Both the position numbers and the translations under genes were made by a program. Below the pieces are notes generated by a model, which saw only the letters and a program-made list of their open reading frames with translations, was not told the DNA's origin and ran no database searches. A stretch of 32,000 nucleotides of DNA from Cylindrospermopsis raciborskii Cr2010 (GTDB taxonomy: Bacteria > Cyanobacteriota > Cyanobacteriia > Cyanobacteriales > Nostocaceae), in the NCBI RefSeq assembly GCF_003367075.2, contig NZ_CP065936.1, positions 2,100,001-2,132,000 on the forward strand, read 5' to 3'. Below, in pieces: positions 3,260-29,992 of the stretch; position 1 is the stretch's first letter; every line of letters begins with the position of its first letter.

Positions 3260-5437
3260 TTAATAGGTCTTAGGTTTGGCTAGATTTTTAAATTTTGTAA
3301 ATTGGGGGTCAAATAGAAGTTTAACTGTTCCCGTGGGACCATTGCGATGTTTGGCAATAATAACTTCTGCTATACCGCGATCGGGGGTATCGGGTGCATA
3401 ATATTCTTCACGGTAAAGCATAATAACTAAATCCGCATCTTGTTCAATGGAACCAGATTCTCGCAGGTCTGACAACATAGGACGTTTATTAGTTCTAGCT
3501 TCCACACTTCTGCTCAACTGAGATAGGGCAATTATGGGAACTGATAATTCCCTGGCTAAACCCTTGAGAGAACGGGTAATTTTGGATAATTCCTGTACAC
3601 GATTGTCTCCCGCACCTTCCATTAGTTGCAGGTAGTCTATAACGATTAGACCTAGTTTGGAATTCTGTTGTGCTTGTAGTTTTCTAGCTTGACTCCGCAT
3701 TTGGGTGATGGTAATATTGGGGGTGTCATCAATAAAAACGGGCATTTCTGATAGCAAACTAATAGCGCGACTTAGGGGTTCCCATTGGGTTTGACTGATC
3801 CTCCCGCTTCTTAAATAACCGGTTTCAATTTGGGCCTCACTAGCTAATAATCTTTGTACTAGCTGCTCTTTAGACATTTCTAAACTGAACACTGCTACCG
3901 GTAATTTATAGCCTACGGCAATGTTATGGGCTAGATTTAAACAAAATGCAGTGTTATGCACACAAATGTCATTGGCTATAAAGTTATGAGTATGTGGTAT
4001 GGTTAGGTCATAGACCCGTTTTTCCCCCAAGTTCTCAATGGCTATGATTTCATCCCAGTAGATTTCACAGTCTGTCTGGGTTTCTATTGGTTCTAATGTT
4101 TGCGCTACAACACCAATCTCGAATCTCTCGATGGAAAGGGGTTCTGTAATTTCCACTTGCCAAGTGGTTTGGGTAGTTTGCTCTTTGTTATAGCCTTTTC
4201 CTAATCTGGCAATTATGCCAAATCTTAATAATAAATGTTGAATCTGTCTTGCTAGTTTCTCCTGGTTTGTTCTATAGGTCGTCTGTAATTTTTCTTTGAT
4301 AGCTAAGGTGTGACCTTCATGCTCTATATTACTGATGAATAACTGATTTAAAAACAAAGCTATTTGCGATCGCCCTAATTTAAAAACTATGGGAGGTATG
4401 GTTTTCTCCATATTGCCATTTCCCAAACAATGGGCTATAATTTTGAGCTGACCATCATCAATTTTTTCCTTACCAAAGACATTGATTTGAGCGGGAACTG
4501 CTATTTTAGCACCTGGTTTGAGATCTGCTAACTTTTGCCATCCGGTTGGGGTTAAGTAAGGATGAGTAATGGTGGTATCAATAGAACGACCTAATGCAGT
4601 TGTAACCCGAAAAACTGGTTTTATGCCATCGTTGACAAATCCACAGGGTTGAGTAAAACTAAATTTCCAATTTGGGTTCAGGGTTAATACCATACCCCCC
4701 TTTCGGTTGTATAACTCTTCAATGGTGACAATTTCTCCATCTGCTAAGACTATTTCCGAGTCATAACTTACACACTTCCCCATAGAAGGTCTACCCGCGA
4801 CGATAATTAAATCAGAACGCTGAAAACCGCTGGTCATGGCGTCCAAATCATAAAAACCACTAGGAATACCCGGTAAAGCAACTCCTTCATGACGGGTTTC
4901 AATTTCCTGAAAGGTATGAACTAGGGTATCCGAAATGTGAACTAGTCCCTCCTGGGGTTTTTCTTGGGTAATTCCAAAAACCTTCTGCTCTGCTTGATCT
5001 AAAACTATTGGTAATTCTGTCTGGGTCTCAAATCCTAATTTGACAATTTCATTACCTGCTTTAATTAATTGTCTACGCAGATACTTATCCATGACTAAAT
5101 CCGCTAACATATCAATATTTACTGATGATACGGTGCGGTCTATCAATGTAGCTAGTTTATTTCTACCGCCAATACGATTTAGCTTGTCATTACCAGTTAG
5201 CCACTCTGTTAGGGAAAGTAAGTCGGTTGGTTTATTTTGGTTATTGAGAATTATTGCTGCTTGATAAATTTCTCTATGGGCATTAACATAAAACGCCTGG
5301 GGAAGAAGACGATCCCTGATTCTACCCATAGCTTCTGGATCCAAAAGAATACCCCCCAAAATAGCCTCTTCCGCTTCGATGTTTTGGGGAGGAAGCTGAT
5401 CACTACTATTGCCTTGAAAGTTCAATTCTTTAGCCAT
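3260..5437 (-). CDS. dnaB: Replicative DNA helicase DnaB, interrupted by an in-frame intein (725-aa precursor, ~451 aa after splicing)
   Basis: N-terminal PPQNIEAEEAILGGILLDP. The Walker A motif is split as AGRPSMGK / TAFCLNLAHN. Downstream are SLEMS, IVIDYLQLM, ALSQLSR, ESGSIEQDADLV and AKHRNGPTG. Confidence 0.95.
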   Translation of the reverse strand: MAKELNFQGNSSDQLPPQNIEAEEAILGGILLDPEAMGRIRDRLLPQAFYVNAHREIYQAAIILNNQNKPTDLLSLTEWLTGNDKLNRIGGRNKLATLIDRTVSSVNIDMLADLVMDKYLRRQLIKAGNEIVKLGFETQTELPIVLDQAEQKVFGITQEKPQEGLVHISDTLVHTFQEIETRHEGVALPGIPSGFYDLDAMTSGFQRSDLIIVAGRPSMGKCVSYDSEIVLADGEIVTIEELYNRKGGMVLTLNPNWKFSFTQPCGFVNDGIKPVFRVTTALGRSIDTTITHPYLTPTGWQKLADLKPGAKIAVPAQINVFGKEKIDDGQLKIIAHCLGNGNMEKTIPPIVFKLGRSQIALFLNQLFISNIEHEGHTLAIKEKLQTTYRTNQEKLARQIQHLLLRFGIIARLGKGYNKEQTTQTTWQVEITEPLSIERFEIGVVAQTLEPIETQTDCEIYWDEIIAIENLGEKRVYDLTIPHTHNFIANDICVHNTAFCLNLAHNIAVGYKLPVAVFSLEMSKEQLVQRLLASEAQIETGYLRSGRISQTQWEPLSRAISLLSEMPVFIDDTPNITITQMRSQARKLQAQQNSKLGLIVIDYLQLMEGAGDNRVQELSKITRSLKGLARELSVPIIALSQLSRSVEARTNKRPMLSDLRESGSIEQDADLVIMLYREEYYAPDTPDRGIAEVIIAKHRNGPTGTVKLLFDPQFTKFKNLAKPKTY
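3953..4774 (-). mobile_element. DnaB intein (274 aa, residues 222-495) inserted inside the Walker A P-loop (GK|T)
   Basis: Starts with Cys (TGT 4774-4772; CVSYDSEIVLADGEIVTIEEL, block A). Block B is TxxH in SIDTTITHPYL. Blocks F/G are VYDLTIPHTHNFIANDICVHN, ending at Asn (AAC 3955-3953) with +1 Thr. Removing it restores GRPSMGKT. The central ~135 aa has LAGLIDADG-like remnants (IIAHCLGNGNM, FLNQLFISNIEHEG) without the usual acidic residues. Confidence 0.9.
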
Positions 5438-10473: not shown

Positions 10474-13400
10474 ATGCATCGTATCAATGCCACACCGGGT
10501 GGGTGGAACGAATCAGAAAGTTTGATATTTCTGGAACAAACCCCAGCCCCTTTTATATTTATCACTGCTGCTGACACAGATATACAAACCCTAGCCACAA
10601 CAGTGCCAAAATTGCCCGTTCAATTTCCCCAGATGAGAGTTGCCAATCTGCTGCAATTACAGCAACAGATGACCATAGACACTTACGCTGAAGAAGTGTT
10701 GGAACTTGCTCAGGTAATAGTTTTACGTCTACTAGGAGGGGGTTCCTATTGGGCTTATGGTTTGGAGGTAGTACAAGAAATTGTAGCCACCAACTGCACT
10801 AGTCTTATTGTAATGCCAGGAGACGACGCTCTTGATCTGGATTTAATATCTAAGTCTACTGTTTCTGAAAAAATTGTTCGTCAGGTGTGGGAGTATTTTC
10901 AAGAAGGTGGCACGGAAAACTTTCTGAATGGTTTGTTATTTGTCTGTGATAATTGTCTCTCCACTGGATTTCACCCAGCACCACCACAAGCTGTCCCCAG
11001 GGTAGGACTATATGAACCCGCAAAACCGGAAAGTAGTAAATCCCTGGATGAGTTAGATTTTTCCCAATTACCCAGAGTAGGTATTTTATTCTATCGCGCT
11101 CATTATTTGGCAGGTAATGTTCGTGTAATTGATGCTTTGTGTCATGCTCTAGTGAGAAAAAATCTGCATCCAGTCCCGGTTTTTGTTTCTTCCTTGCGGG
11201 AACCGGGTGTGAGCGAACAATTAGTCCACCTATTCCAATCTTGCGAGAATCACCATATTGATTTATTACTCAACACCACGAGTTTTTCCTTAGCACGTTT
11301 GGAGACAGAAACACCCCAGGTTGAACTTTGGCAAAAATTGGATGTTCCAGTTTTTCAGGTCATCCTCTCTGGTGGTCCCCTAGAACAATGGACATCCCAA
11401 CTGCAAGGTTTGACCCCCCGGGACATGGCTATGAATGTGGCCTTACCAGAGGTAGATGGCAGAATTATTACTAGAGCTGTATCTTTTAAAACTTTACAAA
11501 CTCGCAATTCCAGTTTAGAAACCGATGTGGTGGTTTATGAACCTGTGGGCGATCGCATTAATTTTGTGGTAGATTTGGCGGCAAATTGGCTGAGATTACG
11601 GCGCAAAATGCCCTCAGAAAGGCGTGTAGCTATAATTTTGGCAAATTACCCTAACACCAATGGCAGATTGGCTAATGGGGTAGGTTTAGATAGTCCTGCT
11701 AGTTGTATAGAAATTCTCTTAGCCTTAGAGAGTGCGGGTTATGATGTGAGTGCCATACCCAAAAACGGTGATGAACTAATCAAAGTTCTTACCGCTGGGG
11801 TGACCAATGATCCGGAAGGTCGGGATTGGAAGCATGTAAATCAATCTGTTTCCTTTGAAGAATATACAAGATATTTTAATACATTACCCAGATCCGTTCA
11901 GGAAGAAGTTCTCAAGCGTTGGGGGAATTGGGAGGTGATGAATTCCGGGGAATCAAGGGGGATATCAGTTTGTGGAGTGAGTTTTGGCCATGTATTTGTG
12001 GGGATTCAACCCGCACGAGGTTATGAACAAGACCCCAGTTTAAATTATCATGCGCCAGATTTAGAACCTACCCATAATTATTTAGCGTTTTATTATTGGG
12101 TCAGGGAAGTGTTTAAGTGTGATGCCATTATTCACCTAGGAAAACACGGCAATTTAGAATGGTTACCCGGTAAAAGTGTGGCCCTATCAAATAGCTGTTA
12201 TCCTGAAGTAGCTTTTGGAGCAACACCCCACTTTTACCCTTTTATTGTCAATGATCCCGGAGAGGGTTCCCAGGCTAAACGTCGCTCTCAAGCGGTGATT
12301 ATTGACCATTTAACCCCACCCATGACCCGTGCGGAATTATACGGTTCCCTACAAAAGGTAGAAAATTTAATCGATGAGTATTATGAAGCAGAAACCTTAG
12401 ATCCTTCCCGACTACCCACATTAAGACAGCGTATTCAAGAGTTAGTGATCCAAGAACATCTTTACCAAGATTTAGGGATCAAAGACGAAAAAGATATCCT
12501 TAACTTTGAATCTGCCATTTTAAACTCTTTAGATGGTTATCTGTGTGAACTTAAAGAAGCACAAATCCGTGACGGGTTACACATTTTTGGACAAGTTCCC
12601 CAGGGGAGACAATTAAGAGACTTAATAGTGGCGATCGCCCGGATTCCCAACCGTCATTCTCCGGGAATCACCCGTGCTATAGCTCAAGACTGGGGATTAA
12701 ATATTGACCCGTTAACAGCAAAATATGGTGACATATTTCATCCACCATCAACTCCGTTACCCAATTGGGTTTCCAGGGAGATGGAAATAAAGTCCTGTCG
12801 CACCCAGGGCGATGTGGTAGAATTTCTGGAGGAACAAGCTGCTTTTCTGGTCACTCAAATTATAGAAAATCAGTTACATGGAACCAACACTAGCCAAGAC
12901 GAGTCCTCAACTCAACAAGTTGTGAACTGGATAGAATCAAAACTACTTCCAGCTCTAGAAAAGACCACCGAAGAAATAGGTAATTTACTGCGGGGATTAG
13001 ATGGTAAGTACGTCCCCAGCGCTGCATCTGGATCACCTACTAGAGGGAGACCAGAAGTGCTACCTACAGGTAGGAATTTTTATGCTGTGGATATTCGAGC
13101 TATCCCCACAGAAACAGCTTGGGATGTAGGTAGAAAAGCGGCGGAAAACTTGATTGAAACCTATACTCAAGAACAGGGGGAATATCCCAAAACTCTAGGT
13201 TTATCAGTGTGGGGAACTTCCACCATGAGAACCGGAGGTGATGACATTGCTGAGGCCTTAGCCCTATTGGGCGTACAACCTATTTGGGATGGTGCAGCAA
13301 GAAGGGTTATAGACTTTGAAATCTTACCCCTGTCCATTTTAGGTCGTCCCCGCGTGGATGTTACTTTGAGAATTTCTGGCTTTTTCCGGGATGCTTTCCC

Positions 13401-14277
13401 CAATTTAATCGACCTATTCTCTCGAGCAGTGGTAGCAGTGGCAAATTTGGATGAACCACCAGAGGAAAATCCCCTAGTAACTGCTGTGGGACAAGATATT
13501 GACCTGTGGACCCAGCAGGGATTAAGTTTAGAAGTGGCTACAGAAAAATCTCTTTATCGTGTTTTTGGTTCCCAACCAGGAACCTATGGTACGGGAATTC
13601 AAGGTTTAATAGCCTCTCAAAATTGGCAAAGTGACCAAGATTTAGCTCAGGCCTATATTAATTGGAGTTCTCATCCCTACTTGGGAACTGTGGAGTCACC
13701 ATCTTCAGTTGCTAACACTGAAATTTTTGTAGAACGTTTAAAGCAAATGCAAATCGTTTTACACAATCAAGATAATCGAGAACACGATTTACTTGATTCT
13801 GATGACTATTATCAATTTCAAGGAGGTTTAACCGCAGCAGTTCGTTCTATTCAGGGTAAAAACCCAGAAACCTATTTTGGAGATCATGCCAATACGAACC
13901 AACCAAAAGTCCGCAAACTGAAAGAGGAAATTGCCAGGGTTTATCGCTCCCGGGTTATTAACCCCAAGTGGATTGAAGGGGTAATGCGCCATGGTTATAA
14001 GGGTGCTTTTGAAATAGCAGCAACAGTGGACTTTTTATTCGGTTATGATGCTACCACTCAATGTGTAGAAGACTACATGTATACAGGAATTTTTGACAGT
14101 TACTTACAAGATACAAAAGTTTGTGAATTCATTCGAGAAAAGAATCCTTGGGCCTTGCGTGATATAGCTGAAAGGTTATTAGAAGCACACCAAAGGAGAT
14201 TATGGCAAAATGTCAGTCTAGAAACCTTAGAGACCTTGAGAAACCTGGTACATGAGGCGGAGTCCCTGGTAGAATGA
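10474..14277 (+). CDS. cobN: Cobaltochelatase large subunit CobN
   Basis: 1267 aa. It has HLGKHGNLEWLPGK, NDPGEGSQAKRRSQAVIIDHLTPP, LDGKYVPSAASGSPTRGRPEVLPTGRNFYAVD and RISGFFRD, which are CobN-type variants of the CobN/ChlH family motifs. Confidence 0.9.
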   Translation: MHRINATPGGWNESESLIFLEQTPAPFIFITAADTDIQTLATTVPKLPVQFPQMRVANLLQLQQQMTIDTYAEEVLELAQVIVLRLLGGGSYWAYGLEVVQEIVATNCTSLIVMPGDDALDLDLISKSTVSEKIVRQVWEYFQEGGTENFLNGLLFVCDNCLSTGFHPAPPQAVPRVGLYEPAKPESSKSLDELDFSQLPRVGILFYRAHYLAGNVRVIDALCHALVRKNLHPVPVFVSSLREPGVSEQLVHLFQSCENHHIDLLLNTTSFSLARLETETPQVELWQKLDVPVFQVILSGGPLEQWTSQLQGLTPRDMAMNVALPEVDGRIITRAVSFKTLQTRNSSLETDVVVYEPVGDRINFVVDLAANWLRLRRKMPSERRVAIILANYPNTNGRLANGVGLDSPASCIEILLALESAGYDVSAIPKNGDELIKVLTAGVTNDPEGRDWKHVNQSVSFEEYTRYFNTLPRSVQEEVLKRWGNWEVMNSGESRGISVCGVSFGHVFVGIQPARGYEQDPSLNYHAPDLEPTHNYLAFYYWVREVFKCDAIIHLGKHGNLEWLPGKSVALSNSCYPEVAFGATPHFYPFIVNDPGEGSQAKRRSQAVIIDHLTPPMTRAELYGSLQKVENLIDEYYEAETLDPSRLPTLRQRIQELVIQEHLYQDLGIKDEKDILNFESAILNSLDGYLCELKEAQIRDGLHIFGQVPQGRQLRDLIVAIARIPNRHSPGITRAIAQDWGLNIDPLTAKYGDIFHPPSTPLPNWVSREMEIKSCRTQGDVVEFLEEQAAFLVTQIIENQLHGTNTSQDESSTQQVVNWIESKLLPALEKTTEEIGNLLRGLDGKYVPSAASGSPTRGRPEVLPTGRNFYAVDIRAIPTETAWDVGRKAAENLIETYTQEQGEYPKTLGLSVWGTSTMRTGGDDIAEALALLGVQPIWDGAARRVIDFEILPLSILGRPRVDVTLRISGFFRDAFPNLIDLFSRAVVAVANLDEPPEENPLVTAVGQDIDLWTQQGLSLEVATEKSLYRVFGSQPGTYGTGIQGLIASQNWQSDQDLAQAYINWSSHPYLGTVESPSSVANTEIFVERLKQMQIVLHNQDNREHDLLDSDDYYQFQGGLTAAVRSIQGKNPETYFGDHANTNQPKVRKLKEEIARVYRSRVINPKWIEGVMRHGYKGAFEIAATVDFLFGYDATTQCVEDYMYTGIFDSYLQDTKVCEFIREKNPWALRDIAERLLEAHQRRLWQNVSLETLETLRNLVHEAESLVE

Positions 14278-20806: not shown

Positions 20807-21376
20807 ATGAAGATTGCACCAGAAATCACCTATCGTAACCTAGATAAATCCCAGGTAATTGATAAATTGGTTCGGGAGAAAATAGCCAAATTGGAAAATA
20901 TTTGTAATTACATTAATAGCTGTCATATTGCCATAGAAAAAAGCCATGATCGTCCTCGGAGTGGTTCTCCCTATCGGGTAAGAATTGATCTAACTGTTCC
21001 TCCTGGTCATGAACTAGTAGCAGAAAAAAATCCTGGTGAGAGTATTCGATATGAACCTCTGGATGCAGTAATTAGACAAATTTTTGATGCCATGGTTCAT
21101 CAACTATCTAAACTTACCCAAATGCAACGTGCCAGTGAGCAATATGATAGAGATGAAGAAACACGGGAGAGTACAGGTTTCATCACAAAACTATTTAAAG
21201 AAGATGGATATGGATTTTTACAAGCCCTAGATGGGAGGGAAATATACTTTCATAAAAATAGTGTTTTACATCAAGATTTTAATCAATTAAAACTAGGTGC
21301 TTGTGTTCATTTTTCCCAAGAAGAAGGAGAGCAAGGACCACAAGCAACAACTATTCAATTAGTTGATAAACGTTGA
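20807..21376 (+). CDS. HPF/RaiA (ribosomal S30AE)-like N-terminal domain fused to a C-terminal cold-shock (CSD/OB) domain
   Basis: The N-terminus KIAPEITYRNLDKSQVIDKLVREKIAKLENICNYINSCHIAIEK...YRVRIDLTVPG..LV resembles HPF/YfiA. The C-terminus TGFITKLFKEDGYGFLQALDGREIYFHKNSVLHQDFNQLKLGACVHFSQEEGEQGPQATTIQLV follows the CSD pattern (GxV..F...GYGFI....g.diFvH.s.....f..L..G..V.F....g.kGpqA..v). Confidence 0.7.
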   Translation: MKIAPEITYRNLDKSQVIDKLVREKIAKLENICNYINSCHIAIEKSHDRPRSGSPYRVRIDLTVPPGHELVAEKNPGESIRYEPLDAVIRQIFDAMVHQLSKLTQMQRASEQYDRDEETRESTGFITKLFKEDGYGFLQALDGREIYFHKNSVLHQDFNQLKLGACVHFSQEEGEQGPQATTIQLVDKR

Positions 21377-21417: not shown

Positions 21418-22398
21418 TTACCTACTTCCCGTGACCTGATATTGATAATTACTATGTGCCTTATTTAAACTTTCCATCACTATTTTTACTAACCAATCTG
21501 GTTGTAGAACTCTAGCATTAGCGCCATATTGTAAAATTCTTTGCTGAAACCAGAAAATACAATCTTCTTGTGTTTCAATATCAACATGCTCTATCTTATC
21601 AGGAGGAGAAATAATTTTTTCATAGGGACGACGCGGTTTATAATTGGCTAAATTCCCTGTCAGACGATATTGAATTTTCAAAGTGGGAAATTTGGTGTAA
21701 GTCCAAGGTATTTGGGAAGAAGAACCCACCCTAGTAATACGGTCTACCCTTAAAGTGCAATTCTGCTCTGGATTAGGTGTTTTGTGAATGTGTTGACCAA
21801 CAAAACTCGGAACTATACTAAATAAATAAAGGACTCCGTTATGCAGTCTTAATTCCGACTTGTCTAAGTCCCACTGTTTGTCATTACCATTTCTGCTTCT
21901 ATACCAAACAACAAATCGACGCTTTTTCCCAATCCGATTTTGTAGATCCTGTACTATTTCCTGAATCTTATCTTCACTATAATTCGTAGGTGGGTGAAAA
22001 TCCGTTGTCAGTTTGTGGGATATGCGATTTTCCGAGTTAGCAATTCTGTAAATATGTCCCGCCTCCGCAGAAAACCCCAGACTTGCTAGTAATTCACATG
22101 CCATAGCTAAAGCTTGTCGTTGTTCTTCTGTTATAATTACGGGGAAATCTGATGTCACCAATTTATATGGTTGGTTTGGCGCTGATTTAATTTCAAAACC
22201 ACAACCCCTCAACTTAGTTACGGTGCGGGTGATCTTTTGTCCTAGATCCCCATCTGCAAAACCCCGTTCCCCTAGCAATAACATTAATTCTGATTTTTTT
22301 CGGGACTTTTGTGCGAGGAGTCTCAATATTTCTAGTGCGAATCCTATTTGATTCCATGGACTAGCATTATTTGATGACATCTTGACTGGGATAGACAA
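21418..22398 (-). CDS. wHTH-WYL-WCX transcriptional regulator, divergent from the cas genes
   Basis: The N-terminal winged-HTH-like segment is FALEILRLLAQKSRKKSELMLLLG. The WYL-like core is RRFVVWYRSRNGNDKQWDLDKSELRLHNGVLYLFSI. The C-terminal extension is FWFQQRILQYGANARVLQPDWLVKIVMESLNKA. Confidence 0.75.
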   Translation of the reverse strand: MSIPVKMSSNNASPWNQIGFALEILRLLAQKSRKKSELMLLLGERGFADGDLGQKITRTVTKLRGCGFEIKSAPNQPYKLVTSDFPVIITEEQRQALAMACELLASLGFSAEAGHIYRIANSENRISHKLTTDFHPPTNYSEDKIQEIVQDLQNRIGKKRRFVVWYRSRNGNDKQWDLDKSELRLHNGVLYLFSIVPSFVGQHIHKTPNPEQNCTLRVDRITRVGSSSQIPWTYTKFPTLKIQYRLTGNLANYKPRRPYEKIISPPDKIEHVDIETQEDCIFWFQQRILQYGANARVLQPDWLVKIVMESLNKAHSNYQYQVTGSR

Positions 22399-22494
22399 TG
22401 TTTAATTCAGCAATAATTATACATCTTAATTTCAGGATTTATTACCACTTGTTTTTAAAAAGTATTTTTGTGTGTTAAACAAAGTTTTGATTTG

Positions 22495-22514
22495 ATGATG
22501 TCAATTAACATCAT
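22495..22514. promoter_or_regulatory. Inverted repeat ATGATGT-CAATTA-ACATCAT in the WYL/cas7 divergent intergenic region; candidate operator
   Basis: Arms at 22495-22501 and 22508-22514 are exact reverse complements. It lies ~97 nt from the WYL start and ~226 nt from the cas7 start. Confidence 0.3.
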
Positions 22515-22740
22515 TTTTCTAATCTATAAACCCAAAAATTTTTGAGATGTGGTCATTTTTTGATAACAACTCCCAATCAGGAAGTATTAGATTAGTTGCA
22601 TCAAGTAAATACCTAGAGTAAACACTTACCCTAAAATGAAAATTTATTTACTGCTCCTATACTCGAAACTAGACGAAAAGTAGGAGTTTGCGAGATATTT
22701 GCATGTTTGCAAAATCAAAAAGCACTAAGGATCCAAAAAG

Positions 22741-23721
22741 ATGAGTTTTTTAGACAGTTTTTTACACAGTATCAAACCAGAATTTCCCACAGCTTTACCC
22801 CGTTTAGCATCTGGTAAATATGTCCATTTTGTAATGTTGCGTCACAGTCAATGCTTTCCTATATTACAACCCGATGGAGTGTTAAGCACAGTACGAACAC
22901 GAGCAGGAATACAAACTAGTGATATGATTAATAAACTAGTAATGTTGAAGCATCAACAAACCACATCAGCAAGATTAGCAGGAAGGAAACTATTGTGTTC
23001 CCTTGGTTTAGCTAGTGATAACCCCAAGGATAAAGATAAATTTTGTAATGGTGAAAACTGCTGTAAAAAATGCCCAGATTGTATTATTTACGGATTTGCT
23101 GGTAATGAAAGTGGAATAGAGCTGGCAAAAGTCTACTCAGACTCATCTTTTTCTCTCGGTGACGAATCAAATGATGTTATTACCGAAATTACCTTTCCTA
23201 CCCTAGAAACCTTGTGTGATCCTACTTTTGAGAGTTTTTTATATGTTTTGGGCAATTTATTGCATAACCCCCCTCATATAGGGCGGGAATTAACAATTAG
23301 TAAAATGTCCAATCATGTAATTGGCATTGTATTTTGTGATGGTGAAATATTCAGTAATCTTCATTTTACCCAAGCATTATATGATATTTTTAAATCAGAT
23401 CTTAATACTTCCTTGGTGGACTTAATTACCAAAGCTACGGAAGTAAGCAATAATCTGTTAAATCAAGAACCGGTACGCAAGACTAGGATAATTACAGGAT
23501 CACAGTTAACAGACCTACTAACAGAAGTTTCCATCCTTTATCAAGATGAGACTAAATTAAAAACTGTGATGACCACACTTTGTCAACAGACAAAAATTTA
23601 TGCTCAAATCTATGGTGATTCTTGGTCTTCAAGAGGCAAAGAAATTATCCCCAGTCTACCTTTTAGAAAAAGAAATTTTATTAGTCTAGATAGTAGCAAC
23701 TATCAATTAGTTAACCTCTAG
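22741..23721 (+). CDS. cas7d: Cas7d (Csc2)-like type I-D backbone subunit
   Basis: YVHFVMLRHSQCFPIL, VMLKHQQTTSARLAGRKLL, CCKKCPDCIIYGFAG, DPTFESFLYVLGNLL and NHVIGIVFCDGEIFSNLHFTQALYD match the Csc2 family pattern as I remember it. It is first in a cas7-cas5-cas6 order typical of type I-D. Confidence 0.7.
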   Translation: MSFLDSFLHSIKPEFPTALPRLASGKYVHFVMLRHSQCFPILQPDGVLSTVRTRAGIQTSDMINKLVMLKHQQTTSARLAGRKLLCSLGLASDNPKDKDKFCNGENCCKKCPDCIIYGFAGNESGIELAKVYSDSSFSLGDESNDVITEITFPTLETLCDPTFESFLYVLGNLLHNPPHIGRELTISKMSNHVIGIVFCDGEIFSNLHFTQALYDIFKSDLNTSLVDLITKATEVSNNLLNQEPVRKTRIITGSQLTDLLTEVSILYQDETKLKTVMTTLCQQTKIYAQIYGDSWSSRGKEIIPSLPFRKRNFISLDSSNYQLVNL

Positions 23722-23739
23722 TAAACCTCAATTAAATTT

Positions 23740-24408
23740 ATGATGATTTATCAATGTGATTTAAAATTACATGATAATGTATTTCTTGCCAATCGTGAAA
23801 TTGGTAACCTGTATGAAACCGAGAAATATCTGCACAATTGGGCATTGAGTTTTGCTTTTTTTGAAACAGATTATATTCCTCGTTCTTACCGTCTCCTGGG
23901 TAAAGTAGTTCCAGAACTTACTTATTTAGATACCAATCAAGAGCAAAGTCTTTTTCATCTAAATCAAGCTGGAATTTATGTCTTTCCTGCTTTACCAATT
24001 AGCTGGTCATATCAAGTTAACACCGTTGCCCAAATTCCTTGCTATCATGAGTATAGCAATGTCAAAGAATTAGCGGTAGGTAGTCACTTTAAAACCTATA
24101 TTTTTGCTCCCCATGAAATTACAATTCCCCACTGGATTAGACTGGGTAAATGGTCAGCAAAAATTAAAGTTGAAACCAGTATTATCTCAGACTTCAAACA
24201 AAAATCTGGAGAATATGTTAGTAAACATCCTTTAAACCCCATAGATTTATCTCGAACCACCAAATTATTACTTTATAATAGGATTTTTATGTCACCCTCC
24301 AGCTTGTTAAGCCAAGCACAATTAATGGGAGATTATTATCAATTACCAGACCAAACTTGCTTACCTAAGAGAGTGGGTTATGGTGCAAGCACAGGGATAT
24401 TGATCTAA
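23740..24408 (+). CDS. cas5d: Cas5d (Csc1)-like subunit
   Basis: MIYQCDLKLHDNVFLANREIGNLYETEKYLHNWAL, IYVFPALP, KELAVGSHF, IPHWIRLGKWSAKIKVE and HPLNPIDL resemble Csc1. It starts 18 nt after cas7d. Confidence 0.7.
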   Translation: MMIYQCDLKLHDNVFLANREIGNLYETEKYLHNWALSFAFFETDYIPRSYRLLGKVVPELTYLDTNQEQSLFHLNQAGIYVFPALPISWSYQVNTVAQIPCYHEYSNVKELAVGSHFKTYIFAPHEITIPHWIRLGKWSAKIKVETSIISDFKQKSGEYVSKHPLNPIDLSRTTKLLLYNRIFMSPSSLLSQAQLMGDYYQLPDQTCLPKRVGYGASTGILI

Positions 24409-24412
24409 GAAT

Positions 24413-25195
24413 ATGGTTTTACAAAGTTTAATTATTGAACTGGGCGCTGCAAGTGAAAAACCCATTCCTACAAGACTAAATGAGGCAATTTATGCTCAAT
24501 TTATCGATTGGTTAAGCATAGGGAATTCCTATCTAGCTGAATCAGTTTCCAATAGTCAAGAATCATCATTTAGTTTATCTGGACTCATTGGGTATCGGCG
24601 TAAAGATGGGACAAGACTAGGGGATAGATTTTTGATTCGTATTTCTCTGTTAAATGGTAATTTAATACAACCCTTGTTACAAGGCATAGAAATGTATCAA
24701 ACTCCATCTATTTATTTGGATAATTTTCCCTTTATCATTCGCGGTATTTATACTGTACCTAATTCTCATAATTTAGTCAATATTTCTAACTATGAAAGTT
24801 TGGCAAATATTGCTAATTTTAATTCTGAGATCGTGCTAAATTTTATTTCTCCCACTAGTTTACAGCATCATCGCAATATTCAACCTTTTCCCTTACCAGA
24901 CTTGGTATTTAACACCCTACTACATCGTTGGAACTATTTTGCACCCCCAGAGCTACATTTTTCTTCTATTCAATGGCAAAGTTTAGCTTTAGCTTTTGAT
25001 TTAAAAACCCAGTTTTTAAAAATTAACAGCTCCATAGAAACCCGTAGAGAAATAGGTTGTGTGGGTTGGGTTAAATATTTTTTTCCAGATCTGCAACAAG
25101 CTCGTATAGCGAATATTTTAGCCAAATTCGCCCTTTTTTCCGGTATTGGTCGCAAAACAACCATGGGCATGGGAGAAGTGAGAATTATTACCTGA
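24413..25195 (+). CDS. cas6: Cas6-family CRISPR endoribonuclease-like protein
   Basis: SFSLSGLIG (compare PFTLSGL), LNFISPTSL, FNTLLHRWNYFAP and the C-terminal glycine-rich loop FSGIGRKTTMGMGEV. It starts 4 nt after cas5d. Confidence 0.8.
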   Translation: MVLQSLIIELGAASEKPIPTRLNEAIYAQFIDWLSIGNSYLAESVSNSQESSFSLSGLIGYRRKDGTRLGDRFLIRISLLNGNLIQPLLQGIEMYQTPSIYLDNFPFIIRGIYTVPNSHNLVNISNYESLANIANFNSEIVLNFISPTSLQHHRNIQPFPLPDLVFNTLLHRWNYFAPPELHFSSIQWQSLALAFDLKTQFLKINSSIETRREIGCVGWVKYFFPDLQQARIANILAKFALFSGIGRKTTMGMGEVRIIT

Positions 25196-26191: not shown

Positions 26192-26320
26192 GAATTATGA
26201 TAAGATTCGTGGTTCAACTAATCCAATATAACTCACTCCCATGATAGATATTCTCCCGAAACCAGCTAAGAATGTTTAAGATCAAGGTAAATATTTAATA
26301 AATCTAAGAGTTTGGATAGC

Positions 26321-29300
26321 ATGAAACGGATTGTCTTAATTGCTGGGTTTGAATCTTTTAATGCCGACTTATACAGAAAAGCAGCTCTTTTGGCTAGTTC
26401 TCGCTGTTCTGACCTAGATATTCATGTGTTTAGCGATCGCAATATTAGTACAAATCAAGAAGAGATCAAAAATGCACTTAAAAATGCCGATGTATTTTTT
26501 GGCAGTTTAATCTTTGATTATGATCAGGTTTTGTGGTTAAGGGAGCATATTCGTCATATTCCCATCCGACTAATTTTTGAGTCAGCGTTAGAATTAATGA
26601 GTTTGACCCAAATAGGTAAGTTCTCCATAGGTGACAAACCTGCGGGGATGCCAAAACCGATTAAGTTCATCCTGGATAAATTCAGCAATGGTAAAGAAGA
26701 AGACAAACTTGCTGGTTATATTAGTTTCCTCAAGCTGGGGCCCAAACTATTAAAATTTGTCCCAGTACAAAAAGTTCAAGACCTGCGCAACTGGTTAATC
26801 ATCTACGGTTACTGGAATGCGGGTGGGAAAGAAAATGTAGCAGCTTTATTTTGGATCCTGGCGGAAAAATATTTAGGTTTGAAAGTGGAGAATATTCCCG
26901 AACCTATAGAAACACCTAACATGGGTTTATTACACCCAGACTACCCAGGTTTTTTTCTGTCACCGAGAGCATATTTAGAATGGTATGGGGGAGATGGTCA
27001 CATCCAAGGAAAACCCGTTGTTGCCATATTACTATATAGAAAGCACGTTATTACTAAACAAAATTATATTCCTCAACTAATTAAAAAATTTGAAAGTTCA
27101 GGTTTAATACCCCTACCTATTTTCATTAACGGTGTAGAAGGTCATGTGGCGGTTCGTGATTGGCTGACAACGGATTATGAAAGTCAAGAGAGACAAAAGG
27201 GAAATATAGAAACACCCTCACTATCCATCGAAGCAGTAAAAGTTGATATCCTAGTTTCCACCATTGGGTTTCCCCTAGTGGGTGGACCAGCTGGTTCCAT
27301 GGAAGCGGGAAGACAAGTAGAAGTGGCTAAACGCATTCTTATGGCTAAGAACATTCCCTACATTGTGGCTGCACCCCTACTAATTCAAGATATTTACTCT
27401 TGGACTCGTCAAGGAATTGGAGGTTTACAAAGTGTAGTTTTGTATGCCTTACCGGAACTAGATGGAGCAATTGATACAGTTCCCCTAGGTGGACTAGTGG
27501 GGGAAAATATATACTTAGTACCTGAGCGAGTGCAAAGATTAATTGATAGGGTGATCAACTGGGTTGCTCTAGGTCGAAAACCAACATCAGCGAGAAAAAT
27601 TGCCATTATTCTTTATGGTTTTCCTCCCGGTTATGGTGCGGTGGGAACTGCTGCATTATTAAATGTTCCTCGCAGTTTGATTAAACTACTTCATGCACTC
27701 AAAGAACAGGGTTATACAGTGGGTGAAATTCCCCAAGATGGGGAAGAGTTAATTAGACAAGTAAAAGTGGTGGATGAAGAATTGGAAACCTGGGAAAAAA
27801 ATAAACCCTTCCCCACTAAAACTAATACGGTGAATGTCAAAACCTTAGAAAAGTGGTTAGGTTATCTTCGCACTTCCCGAATTGAAAAACAATGGCAATC
27901 TTTGACCGGTGCAGGGATTAAAACCTATGGAGATGAATTACATATTGGTGGTGTGCAATTAGGAAATATTTGGATTGGCATTCAACCACCTTTAGGGATT
28001 CAAGGGGATCCCATGCGGTTAATGTTTGAAAGAGACCTAACTCCCCATCCCCAATATGCAGCTTATTATAAATGGTTACAAAATGAATTTCAAGCGGATG
28101 CAGTGGTGCATTTTGGTATGCATGGTACGGTGGAATGGTTACCAGGTTCTCCTTTAGGGAATACGGGTTATTCTTGGTCAGATATTCTTTTAGGAAATTT
28201 ACCCAATTTATATATCTATGCTGCTAATAATCCCTCTGAATCAATTTTGGCTAAACGTCGTGGTTATGGGGTATTGATTTCTCATAATGTGCCACCTTAT
28301 GGTCGAGCAGGTCTATATAAGGAATTAGTAAGTTTACGAGATCTCATCGCTGAATATCGAGAAGACCCACAAAAAAACTATGTTTTAAAAGACGGAATTT
28401 GCAAGAAAATTGTTGATACAGGTTTGGATATTGATTGTCCTTTCGATGATGCCAAAAAATTGGGAATTCCTTTTACCCCAGAAAATGTCAAAATGTTTAG
28501 TGTTCATGCTTTTGAACATTATTTAGTGAAGTTATATGAGTACCTACAGGTATTGGAAAACCGTCTGTTTTCTTCCGGATTGCACACTTTAGGTGAACCA
28601 CCTAATGAGGAGGAACTAACCGGTTACTTGAACGCCTATTTTGGGGAAGGAACTGAACTACAAAAAGAATCCCAAAAATCCCAAGAAAATCTAATTATAG
28701 ATTTATTAAACCAGTCCACCGATGAATTAACCAACTTATTACGAGGATTAAATGGTGAGTATATTCCCCCTGCACCCGGTGGAGACTTGTTGAGAGATGG
28801 TCCGGGTGTATTACCTACGGGGAGAAATATTCATGCTTTAGATCCCTATAGAATGCCTTCCCCCGCTGCTTATGAGCGAGGTAGGGAAATTGCTCGCAAA
28901 ATCCTTGACCAGCACTTACAAGAACATCACTCCTATCCAGAAACTGTAGCAGTTTTATTATGGGGTTTAGATGCAATTAAAACCAAGGGTGAATCCCTAG
29001 GGATTTTGTTAGAGTTGGTAGGTGCTGAACCAGTGAAGGAAGGAACAGGAAGAATTATCAGATACGATTTAAAACCCCTAGAAACTGTGGGACATCCTAG
29101 AATTGATGTGCTGGGTAATCTATCGGGTATTTTCCGCGATAGCTTTGTGAATATTATTGAACTGTTGGATGATTTATTTCTGCGAGCAGCAGAAATTGAT
29201 GAACCTCAAGAGTGGAATTTTATTAGAAAACATGCTTTGCTTTTACAAGCACAGGGAGTAGAAAATCCATCAGCTAGATTATTTTCTAACCCCTCCGGTG

Positions 29301-29992
29301 ATTTCGGTTCTTTGGTTAATGACCGAGTAGTTGATGGTAATTGGGATAGTGGTGATGAATTGGGCAAAACCTGGGAGAGTCGCAATGTTTTTAGTTATGG
29401 TCGTCAAGATAAAGGACAAGCTAGACCAGAGGTATTACAAACCTTATTAAAGACAAGCGATCGCATAGTCCAGGAAATAGACTCTGTAGAGTATGGTTTA
29501 ACCGATATTCAAGAATATTATGCCAATACGGGGGGTTTGAAAAAAGCTGCAGAGCAGCAAAGTGGAAAGCGAGTGACAGCTAGTTTCGTGGAGAGTTTTT
29601 CTAAAGACACCACACCCAGGAATTTAGATGATTTATTAAGAATGGAGTACAGAACTAAGTTATTAAATCCTAAATGGGCTAACTCCATGGCCAATCAAGG
29701 TTCGGGAGGTGCTTTTGAAATTTCCCAGCGGATGACAGCTTTAATTGGATGGGGGGGAACAGTGGATTTTAGAGACCATTGGGTTTATGAACAAGCAGCA
29801 GACACCTATGCTTTAGATCAGGAAATGGCGGAAAAATTGCGTCAAGCTAACCCGGAAGCATTTAGGAATATTGTCAGCAGGATGTTAGAAGCACATGGTC
29901 GAGGTTTGTGGAATGCGGATGAAAATAGACTAAATCAACTGCGTCAGTTGTATGAGTTGACTGATGAACAGTTGGAGGGTGTGGGAGTTTAA
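26321..29992 (+). CDS. Magnesium-chelatase H-subunit family protein (ChlH/BchH-like paralogue, ~1223 aa from ATG 26321)
   Basis: HFGMHGTVEWLPG, LPNLYIYAANNPSESILAKRRGYGVLISHNVPPYGRAGLYKEL and LNGEYIPPAPGGDLLRDGPGVLPTGRNIHALDP are closer to ChlH/BchH than to CobN. It is ~100 aa shorter than canonical cyanobacterial ChlH as I remember it. The track start at 26312 is a TTG. Confidence 0.75.
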   Translation: MKRIVLIAGFESFNADLYRKAALLASSRCSDLDIHVFSDRNISTNQEEIKNALKNADVFFGSLIFDYDQVLWLREHIRHIPIRLIFESALELMSLTQIGKFSIGDKPAGMPKPIKFILDKFSNGKEEDKLAGYISFLKLGPKLLKFVPVQKVQDLRNWLIIYGYWNAGGKENVAALFWILAEKYLGLKVENIPEPIETPNMGLLHPDYPGFFLSPRAYLEWYGGDGHIQGKPVVAILLYRKHVITKQNYIPQLIKKFESSGLIPLPIFINGVEGHVAVRDWLTTDYESQERQKGNIETPSLSIEAVKVDILVSTIGFPLVGGPAGSMEAGRQVEVAKRILMAKNIPYIVAAPLLIQDIYSWTRQGIGGLQSVVLYALPELDGAIDTVPLGGLVGENIYLVPERVQRLIDRVINWVALGRKPTSARKIAIILYGFPPGYGAVGTAALLNVPRSLIKLLHALKEQGYTVGEIPQDGEELIRQVKVVDEELETWEKNKPFPTKTNTVNVKTLEKWLGYLRTSRIEKQWQSLTGAGIKTYGDELHIGGVQLGNIWIGIQPPLGIQGDPMRLMFERDLTPHPQYAAYYKWLQNEFQADAVVHFGMHGTVEWLPGSPLGNTGYSWSDILLGNLPNLYIYAANNPSESILAKRRGYGVLISHNVPPYGRAGLYKELVSLRDLIAEYREDPQKNYVLKDGICKKIVDTGLDIDCPFDDAKKLGIPFTPENVKMFSVHAFEHYLVKLYEYLQVLENRLFSSGLHTLGEPPNEEELTGYLNAYFGEGTELQKESQKSQENLIIDLLNQSTDELTNLLRGLNGEYIPPAPGGDLLRDGPGVLPTGRNIHALDPYRMPSPAAYERGREIARKILDQHLQEHHSYPETVAVLLWGLDAIKTKGESLGILLELVGAEPVKEGTGRIIRYDLKPLETVGHPRIDVLGNLSGIFRDSFVNIIELLDDLFLRAAEIDEPQEWNFIRKHALLLQAQGVENPSARLFSNPSGDFGSLVNDRVVDGNWDSGDELGKTWESRNVFSYGRQDKGQARPEVLQTLLKTSDRIVQEIDSVEYGLTDIQEYYANTGGLKKAAEQQSGKRVTASFVESFSKDTTPRNLDDLLRMEYRTKLLNPKWANSMANQGSGGAFEISQRMTALIGWGGTVDFRDHWVYEQAADTYALDQEMAEKLRQANPEAFRNIVSRMLEAHGRGLWNADENRLNQLRQLYELTDEQLEGVGV

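Follow-up and report, generated by a model that had tools for sequence, protein, structure and literature searches.

Can the effector backbone of a class 1 CRISPR (clusters of regularly interspaced short palindromic repeats) system outlive the immune function for which it was built? Known nuclease-less class 1 derivatives, namely the CRISPR-associated transposons (CASTs) and the type IV systems, retain a large subunit and guide RNAs. We analyzed a 32,000-nucleotide stretch of the chromosome of the cyanobacterium Cylindrospermopsis raciborskii Cr2010 (NZ_CP065936.1, positions 2,100,001 to 2,132,000, hereafter the window), in which a WYL regulator is transcribed divergently from csc2, csc1 and cas6, genes of the type I-D family. 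By homology, this module can be shown to be a canonical cyanobacterial type I-D locus after two deletions. It is fixed in the chromosome of Cylindrospermopsis/Raphidiopsis and is not decaying neutrally, and each of its three Cas proteins has lost conserved parts. The reading we favor, to which we give roughly an even chance, is that it may have been exapted as a WYL-controlled RNA-binding module centered on a non-catalytic Cas6, being neither an immune effector nor a product of neutral decay. We found no published description of the module, and public annotation names the genes simply as type I-D components; the two-deletion origin, the genus-wide distribution, the purifying selection and the lost protein parts are new here. 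The features of the module are:

21418 to 22380, minus strand: WYL/WCX transcription regulator, orthologue of Sll7009 (PADLOC, Pfam WCX and identity to canonical regulators)
22381 to 22530, no strand: clade-specific intergenic segment (no homologue found in canonical loci)
22531 to 22635, plus strand: presumed cas-operon promoter and 5' leader, homologous to the region directly upstream of cas3' (sequence identity)
22636 to 22719, plus strand: pseudogenized 5' stub of cas3' (alignment to the canonical cas3' start VKISLLPLYSKLNGGVGACALGCLQLCKVK)
22741 to 23721, plus strand: csc2/cas7d derivative, with the thumb and the basic RTRRYGAQESRTGT loop gone and a new C-terminal tail (PF18320)
23740 to 24408, plus strand: csc1/cas5d derivative minus a 16-18-residue loop (TIGR03159, 7sba_H)
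24413 to 25195, plus strand: Cas6d-like protein with active-site residues replaced and fold kept (PADLOC Cas6d, AlphaFold2 model)

Three tightly packed open reading frames (ORFs), separated by 18 nt between csc2 and csc1 and by 4 nt between csc1 and cas6, carry motifs of the Csc2, Csc1 and Cas6 types, as a preliminary description of this DNA had noted. Profile searches placed all three decisively in those families. Csc2 matched Pfam PF18320 at 1.8e-72, in two stretches, Csc1 matched TIGR03159 at 7.9e-47 and Cas6 matched Pfam PF10040 at 1.9e-20, and the PADLOC E-values were 8.4e-80 for Cas7d, 1.1e-88 for Cas5d and 4.6e-106 for Cas6d. The nearest solved structures, both in entry 7SBA, are Synechocystis Cas7d (1e-88) and Cas5d (7sba_H, 1.8e-74), and the order and spacing of the Cas7d, Cas5d and Cas6d genes agree with canonical type I-D loci. 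The regulator matched the PADLOC profile of CRISPR-associated WYL proteins at 5.4e-14 and Pfam WCX at 6.5e-5. Its full-length identity of 48% to Synechocystis Sll7009 bears out its earlier comparison with that protein, and it is 67% identical to the regulator that stands divergent from cas3' in a Dolichospermum locus (L012). The likely start is the ATG at 22380, which gives 320 amino acids; the mechanical ORF, 21418 to 22398 on the minus strand, reaches a TTG at 22398. The divergent gap to csc2 is accordingly 342 bp, as first described, or 360 bp when counted from the likelier ATG, and the reported 36 bp between the end of cas6 and the amidase gene is correct. The window therefore holds Cas7d, Cas5d and Cas6d in order together with a divergent Sll7009-type WYL regulator, a frequent but not obligatory companion, and holds no Cas10d, no Cas3' helicase, no cas4, cas1d or cas2 and no adjacent CRISPR array. 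Cas10d is the large subunit of canonical systems, carries an HD domain and is also the source of Cas11d.

These absences were consistent across methods. Using tblastn, no match to Cas3', Cas10d, Cas4, Cas1 or Cas2 was found in the window at E<1e-6, nor did Cas10d appear at that threshold in any other reduced locus within 10 kb on either side; cas4, cas1d and cas2 were likewise found neither in the window nor in the 10-kb flanks of its relatives. Type I-D arrays were defined as adjacent 37-nt repeats ending in a hairpin plus (A/T)TGAAAC, and an I-D-like repeat as a hairpin plus ACTGAAAC. Tandem Repeats Finder and direct-repeat searches found no CRISPR array in the window. With an nhmmer profile built on 54 type I-D repeats, the lowest E-value there was 19, and the reduced loci were likewise empty. 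The three kinds of search agree with the preliminary description that the intergenic regions of the window contain no direct repeat of 28-37 nt, and its statement that the 3' half of the operon (adaptation genes and array) is missing also holds. The 5' half had been called wholly absent as well. There is indeed no intact cas3' and no cas10d, but a frameshifted cas3' stub of about 30 codons persists at 22636 to 22719.

The stub and the sequence before it point to the origin of the module. From genomes that each represent a species, we collected 80 loci encoding Csc2, and we annotated these using the proteins of a canonical Dolichospermum locus as tblastn queries. Among the roughly 79 species-level loci, nearly all that have enough flank show a WYL gene on the minus strand followed by cas3', cas10d, csc2, csc1, cas6, cas4, cas1 and cas2; where canonical loci have enough flank, most of them have a homologue of the regulator upstream of cas3', and most of those with enough downstream flank carry an array of 37-nt repeats. 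Segment 22531 to 22635 is 69-73% identical to the region upstream of cas3' in loci L033, L069, L025, L021 and L071. The stub that follows opens with the 15-codon ORF MKIYLLLLYSKLDEK, closed by a stop codon, at 22636, and its homology to cas3' extends to about codon 30 through deletions of 1 nt and 5 nt. Since the intergenic region is homologous both to the cas3' upstream region and to the first ~30 codons of the gene, cas3' and cas10d were deleted, leaving the old upstream region in front of csc2. On this alignment, the stub is the left edge of the deletion that took the two genes. The first deletion ran from about codon 30 of cas3' through the end of cas10d, bringing csc2-csc1-cas6 behind the old cas upstream region and next to the divergent Sll7009-type WYL regulator, and a second removed cas4-cas1-cas2 and the array.

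The remnants upstream of csc2 have diverged to different degrees. Segment 22531 to 22635, presumed from its homology to be the cas-operon promoter that now precedes csc2, has only 1-2 mismatches in 105 nt across the genus, C. curvispora included (98-99% conserved), whereas other nearby intergenic regions diverge by 8-48% and the cas3' stub by 7-13%. The adjoining clade-specific segment, 22381 to 22530, diverges by 4-8% across the genus, compared with a synonymous divergence of 0.1-0.45. Near its end, at 22494 to 22514, lies the imperfect palindrome GATGATGT-CAATTA-ACATCAT, with a run of T after it; this element is kept across the genus and may be a candidate operator or a weak terminator. A scan for promoter and terminator consensus sequences found no more sites than in shuffled sequence, and we name no hexamers.

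A separate rearrangement of this junction was seen in Dolichospermum. In L012 (3775 to 4954) and L013, the WYL gene has a 54-residue fragment of a DEAD helicase on one side and the full cas3' on the other, and its first codons correspond to sequence that is non-coding upstream of cas3' in the window, L033, L069 and L025. This layout suggests a duplication or rearrangement of the WYL-cas3' junction among Nostocales.

We then asked how widely the reduced module occurs. The four genes stand in a shared context, IlvD / HPF-CSD ... amidase / ChlH (HPF-CSD joins a hibernation factor to a cold-shock domain), in C. raciborskii (L001, L002), in metagenome relatives (L004-L007, L011), in Raphidiopsis brookii D9 (L014) and in the complete genome of C. 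curvispora GIHE-G1 (L095). The protein clusters also include CS-505, CENA302/303, S07, Cr2010, LB2897, CHAB3438 and Raphidiopsis BLCC-F218, and R. curvata NIES-932 has matching Csc2 and Cas6 proteins. The window Csc2 shares 98% identity with the representative of the cluster to which C. raciborskii CS-505 belongs, and the next-nearest Csc2 is only ~58% and the next Cas6 ~68% identical, both of them canonical. All relatives keep the gaps of 18 nt and 4 nt between the genes. Thus the same WYL-cas7-cas5-cas6 block without cas10d, cas3 or array, whose recurrence the preliminary description had left to comparative work, is found in the same context across Cylindrospermopsis/Raphidiopsis. The surroundings are those of a chromosome: the scanned window ORFs around the module encode DnaB, ribosomal protein L9, CobN, Fur, a sigma factor, HPF-CSD and the amidase, and gene calls in the relatives add GpsA, LipA, IlvD and ChlH. 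A full type I-D locus at this chromosomal site was sought in relatives and not found, as 0 of 79 canonical loci share the housekeeping flanks.

The ORFs are intact in the assemblies examined except in one error-ridden assembly and in the regulator gene of R. brookii D9. A short Csc2 (P0237) was considered as evidence of decay and rejected, because the C. raciborskii assembly from which it comes (L094, GCA_002321935.1) also splits IlvD, GpsA, HPF-CSD and ChlH. Such splitting points to numerous uncorrected indel errors, and we treated this truncation as a sequencing artefact and the L094 gene calls as unfit for pseudogene evidence.

To describe what each protein has lost, we took the alignment columns in which conservation among 75-81 canonical proteins is 95% or higher and counted those still kept. 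Csc2 keeps 107 of 169 such columns (canonical minimum 155), Csc1 88 of 112 (canonical minimum 107) and Cas6 62 of 70 (canonical minimum 65), and the regulator keeps 71 of the 77 columns conserved in canonical regulators. In Csc2, a 30-residue gap corresponding to A138-N167 of Synechocystis Cas7d spans the thumb and deletes 16 canonical conserved columns. The thumb pins the CRISPR RNA (crRNA) and flips every sixth base (PMC9123187, PMC10212523); its residue E152, discussed by Schwartz et al. (PMC9123187), is E153 by count of the RefSeq protein. The conserved basic loop RTRRYGAQESRTGT is replaced or deleted, and several conserved Arg and Lys residues are gone. The AlphaFold2 model of Csc2 has a predicted template modeling (TM) score (pTM) of 0.74 and a TM score of 0.75 to 7sba_A, so the protein retains the palm core fold and the profile of the Cas7d family without its thumb. 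In Csc1, a gap of 16-18 residues removes the loop with Cas5d K114, an accessory contact in recognition of the protospacer-adjacent motif (PAM) (PMC9123187), and the N-terminal motif region of the protein is intact.

The changes in Cas6 concern single residues. Relative to Synechocystis Cas6-1, R29 is replaced by E24, H32 by Y27, H51 by S46, K155 by Q and the RR pair by HR, at positions that are 93-100% conserved among 75 canonical Cas6d proteins. The numbering of these Cas6-1 residues fits the RefSeq protein, except that the Arg pair is counted at 176/177. H32 is still present in C. curvispora, and its change is therefore later than the others. The fold is kept, with an AlphaFold2 model of predicted local distance difference test score (pLDDT) 91 and TM scores of 0.77-0.84 to T. 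thermophilus Cas6A and Cas6B. The protein thus has the double ferredoxin-like fold and the C-terminal glycine-rich loop, GIGRKTTMGMG, of the Cas6 family and lacks the I-D active-site residues, and from its sequence it is predicted to be a non-catalytic RNA binder. The preliminary description had remarked on an odd IYAQF motif in Cas6, which corresponds to the H32-to-Y change; it recognized this divergence and missed the two deletions inside the other proteins and the cas3' stub.

Parts needed for CRISPR immunity have been lost from each protein, and the genes therefore probably do something else now. If the module was exapted for RNA binding, the operon would still be transcribed from the old cas promoter under WYL control, and its products would no longer form an RNA-guided DNA-targeting complex or cut pre-crRNA. 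Cas5d and the less constrained Cas7d would be partners of a non-catalytic, RNA-binding Cas6. In its most specific form, that the non-catalytic Cas6, the thumbless Cas7d and the trimmed Cas5d make up a WYL-regulated complex that binds a cellular RNA in a non-defence role throughout the genus, with no large subunit or array, the proposal is tentative, and we consider it rather less probable than the general reading. Such a domesticated complex might serve in RNA stabilization, sequestration or regulation. An exapted RNA-binding or RNA-processing complex had been among the explanations offered earlier. Binding is plausible, but processing and a canonical Cas7 filament are doubtful because the Cas6 active-site residues, the Cas7d thumb and the Cas5d K114 loop are missing.

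The strongest alternative is that the module serves CRISPR immunity in trans. Cas6 would bind or, with relocated catalysis, cut the transcripts of the 7-11 arrays elsewhere in these genomes, and Cas5d and Cas7d would load the crRNAs or pass them to another effector, e.g. a type III complex. Arrays do exist, 11 in C. curvispora and 7-9 in C. raciborskii strains, and the genomes also carry cas1/cas2 loci. Synechocystis Cas6-1 cleaves a non-cognate repeat in vitro (PMC5741207), and cross-talk among CRISPR systems is documented in a review of type I-D (PMC10212523). The N-terminal motifs of Cas5d are unbroken, Cas6 retains its glycine-rich loop and is the most constrained of the three proteins. 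Yet R29, H32, H51 and K155 of that same Cas6 are replaced, and Cas7d is thumbless and has lost many conserved basic residues. Potential partners of type I-D were also not found. No canonical Csc2 named for Cylindrospermopsis/Raphidiopsis occurs among the best 120 hits, and no Cas1d so named among the best 120 hits for that protein, all at least 74% identical, which also led us to reject relocation of the adaptation module in favor of its loss. The plasmid collection contains no Cylindrospermopsis/Raphidiopsis record with Cas10d, so a plasmid-borne Cas10d was rejected too. Overall, we regard service in trans as unlikely.

The next alternative is a non-functional relic in slow decay, with the remaining constraint coming from, e.g., selection against toxic misfolded products or polar effects. 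The hallmarks for interference or processing are all gone, I-D loci of Limnoraphis (L092) and Stigonema (L055) have lost cas3'-cas10d as well, and cas loci that stand isolated are frequent, making up ~12% of type I loci (PMC5294841). We examined the ratio of nonsynonymous to synonymous substitution rates (dN/dS), comparing the window with its C. raciborskii relatives and C. curvispora and using our own Nei-Gojobori code for canonical pairs. The dN/dS values are 0.06-0.20 for Cas6, 0.14-0.23 for Csc1, 0.12-0.24 for WYL and 0.25-0.38 for Csc2 (0.13-0.26 in its C-terminal core), compared with 0.05-0.27 for the flanking housekeeping genes. In a Fisher test of dN/dS<1, the P-values for the four genes range from 2e-4 to 2e-15, and the probability that an ORF stays stop-free under neutrality, at the observed synonymous divergence, is 1e-2 to 1e-8 per ORF. 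The earlier argument against simple decay, made from uninterrupted ORFs and operon-like spacing, is thereby strengthened (dN/dS 0.06-0.38, P<3e-4 for every gene). As dN/dS is far below 1 in all four genes with missense changes included, polarity alone is no explanation. Cas6 is as constrained as the neighboring housekeeping genes, the ORFs are open in the examined assemblies apart from the error-ridden one, and the conservation of 22531 to 22635 contrasts with the divergence of other intergenic regions. Although Csc2 is relaxed relative to canonical Csc2, we consider a functionless relic improbable, somewhat more so than service in trans.

How the constraint is distributed among the genes bears on which of them matter. 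At canonical loci, dN/dS is typically ~0.06-0.10 for Csc2 (up to 0.34 in apparent recombinant pairs), 0.06-0.14 for Csc1 and 0.02-0.44 for Cas6; against this baseline, Csc2 of the module is relaxed three- to four-fold and Cas6 is at least as constrained as usual. Identity to the L001 proteins follows the same order, at 85% for Csc2, 95.5% for Csc1 and 97.7% for Cas6, which reverses the order at canonical loci, where Csc2 is usually the most and Cas6 the least conserved of the three. For Csc1, Cas6 and WYL, the lineage of the module exceeds its sister lineage 1.7-2.7-fold in length when both are measured from the node that joins it to its nearest relatives; Csc2 has a stem of 0.21 and falls outside all canonical sequences under midpoint rooting. 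These results show that the four genes sped up relative to their nearest canonical relatives on the genus stem and then came under purifying selection.

Two observations on divergence stand beside these results. Between the window and L095, synonymous divergence is higher in the three cas genes (0.23-0.40) than in the flanking housekeeping genes (0.06-0.22), perhaps because codon usage is constrained in the flanks or because the module has had another history. In the canonical pairs L012/L071 and L018/L033, csc2 is far more diverged than csc1 and cas6 (e.g. 87% versus 99% and 96%), suggesting recombination mosaics inside the effector operon.

The gradient of constraint, Cas6 > Csc1 > Csc2, raises a further alternative, in which only the regulator and Cas6 matter. 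The WYL protein would have been recruited to control other genes, the non-catalytic Cas6 would be the single useful product of the operon, and Csc2 and perhaps Csc1 would be passengers on their way to loss. The regulator does keep 71 of 77 conserved columns, and within the genus the tail of Csc2 varies and its gene shows in-frame indels. However, dN/dS is still 0.15-0.38 for Csc2 and Csc1 (P<1e-4), the C-terminal core of Csc2 is held at 0.13-0.26, and the tight 18-nt/4-nt spacing is retained in all relatives. We judge this account about as improbable as that of a relic. Finally, the earlier suggestion of a spare backbone that borrows from another type I-D locus is disfavored, given that the best 120 hits for Csc2 and for Cas1d include no canonical protein named for the genus, that the plasmid collection has no record of the genus with Cas10d, and that the 80 best loci retained in the genome scan include no second csc2 of R. 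brookii D9.

Several points weigh against exaptation as an RNA-binding module and should be set beside the evidence for it. No RNA partner was found, the 32 kb containing no repeat-like element and no Rfam family at gathering score; an AdoCbl-II match inside the WYL gene was sub-threshold (E=0.42) and taken as chance. Of the positions conserved in canonical Csc2, 37% are gone from the Csc2 of the module, on which constraint is three to four times weaker; in-frame indels occur in it within the genus, its tail is unconstrained, and the protein may be in the course of being lost. The WYL gene of R. brookii D9 (L014, 8600 to 9700) spans three frames, i.e. has two frameshifts, and csc2, csc1 and cas6 of that genome are intact. 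These frameshifts may be 454 homopolymer errors, or mark a real pseudogene or a dispensable regulator. That the genus lacks cas10d and cas1d was deduced from how the best 120 hits are named rather than from scans of whole genomes. For Cas6, Jesser et al. 2019 reportedly found that cleavage depends on R29, H32 and H51 and that K155 and the Arg pair contribute to it. Some Cas6 enzymes do without a catalytic His, so that Cas6 activity may persist here in residual or relocated form. New His residues are present at SLQHH.

Comparison with known systems further defines what kind of derivative this is. The closest reference is CRISPR1 on pSYSA of Synechocystis PCC 6803, which has orthologous Cas7d (48%), Cas5d, Cas6 (51%) and WYL (48%) proteins and shares the gene order and the divergent regulator. 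The window differs in having only a stub of Cas3' and no Cas10d/Cas11d, Cas4/1/2 or array, and in having lost the Cas7d thumb, the Cas5d K114 loop and R29/H32/H51/K155 of Cas6. It also differs from canonical loci in its position, as the module lies among chromosomal housekeeping genes and not on a plasmid or in a defence island. The type I-D CAST known as McCAST is likewise a cyanobacterial I-D derivative minus Cas3' and adaptation genes (PMC9881144). It keeps a nuclease-inactivated Cas10d, a short array and Tn7 genes, so that RNA-guided DNA binding persists (Hsieh and Peters, PMC9881144), and none of these components is present in the window. A CAST context (tnsA/B, tnsC, tniQ) was considered and rejected, since the Pfam-scanned window ORFs and the gene calls of relatives are housekeeping genes and neither Cas10d nor an array was found.

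Partial cas operons minus the nuclease half were also seen in two other loci. L092 (9326 to 10987, Limnoraphis robusta BA-68) has a fragment of a WCX regulator, csc2-csc1-cas6-cas4-cas1-cas2 and a 34-repeat array, and in L055 (1 to 5177, a Stigonema metagenome-assembled genome) a type III polyketide synthase and an ABC transporter lie upstream of csc2. Their losses of cas3'-cas10d are independent of that in the window. In contrast to the window, both loci keep adaptation genes, L092 keeps its array too, and their proteins have stayed canonical: 165-168 of the 169 Csc2 columns are kept, as is each of the six Cas6 residues. Unlike these deletions, the Cylindrospermopsis module is old, genus-wide and remodeled.

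Beyond type I-D, a Cas6-related protein of P. furiosus (PDB 3UFC), one of the structural matches of the window Cas6, reportedly binds but does not cleave repeat RNA. Both have the Cas6 fold minus catalytic residues, but 3UFC is a stand-alone paralogue beside active Cas6 enzymes, whereas the window Cas6 is in an operon with remodeled Cas7 and Cas5. Type IV systems share a Cas7-Cas5-Cas6 core without a target-cleaving nuclease or adaptation genes. They keep the large subunit Csf1, usually an array and often DinG, and their proteins come from other families, whereas the window proteins are plainly I-D by sequence.

Some neighboring genes have features of their own. The HPF-CSD gene (20807 to 21376, plus strand), in which a ribosome-hibernation S30AE/HPF domain is joined to a cold-shock domain, converges on the WYL gene at a distance of 41 nt and is ~98% conserved relative to C. 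curvispora; in the closest metagenome relatives, L004-L007, its ORF is interrupted near codon 35. Two CobN/Mg-chelatase-family genes (10474 to 14277 and 26312 to 29992, both on the plus strand) bracket the region 12 kb apart, and gene calls in the relatives assign both to the CobN-Mg_chel family. Further away, at 3260 to 5437 on the minus strand, the replicative helicase DnaB is interrupted by an intein with a LAGLIDADG homing-endonuclease domain. The window contains no tRNA.

Taken together, a module that shed its large subunit, helicase, adaptation genes and array is still under selection across a bloom-forming, toxin-producing genus, and the parts removed from each protein are those tied to guide handling and to target or PAM contact. 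One practical consequence is that the automated type I-D label on these genes overstates the CRISPR defences of Cylindrospermopsis. L092 and L055 give a picture of recent deletion, and thereby show the extent to which the Cylindrospermopsis module has been remodeled. If the module proves functionless, it would be a well-dated case of the dismantling of a CRISPR locus, comparable with the recent Limnoraphis and Stigonema deletions. If it is functional, it would mean that domestication can turn a Cas7-Cas5-Cas6 core to a task of the cell, and it would be a source of a natural non-catalytic Cas6 with its RNA ligand. Should domestication be the true reading, host physiology would here have co-opted the effector backbone of a class 1 system, and would have done so outside a mobile element.

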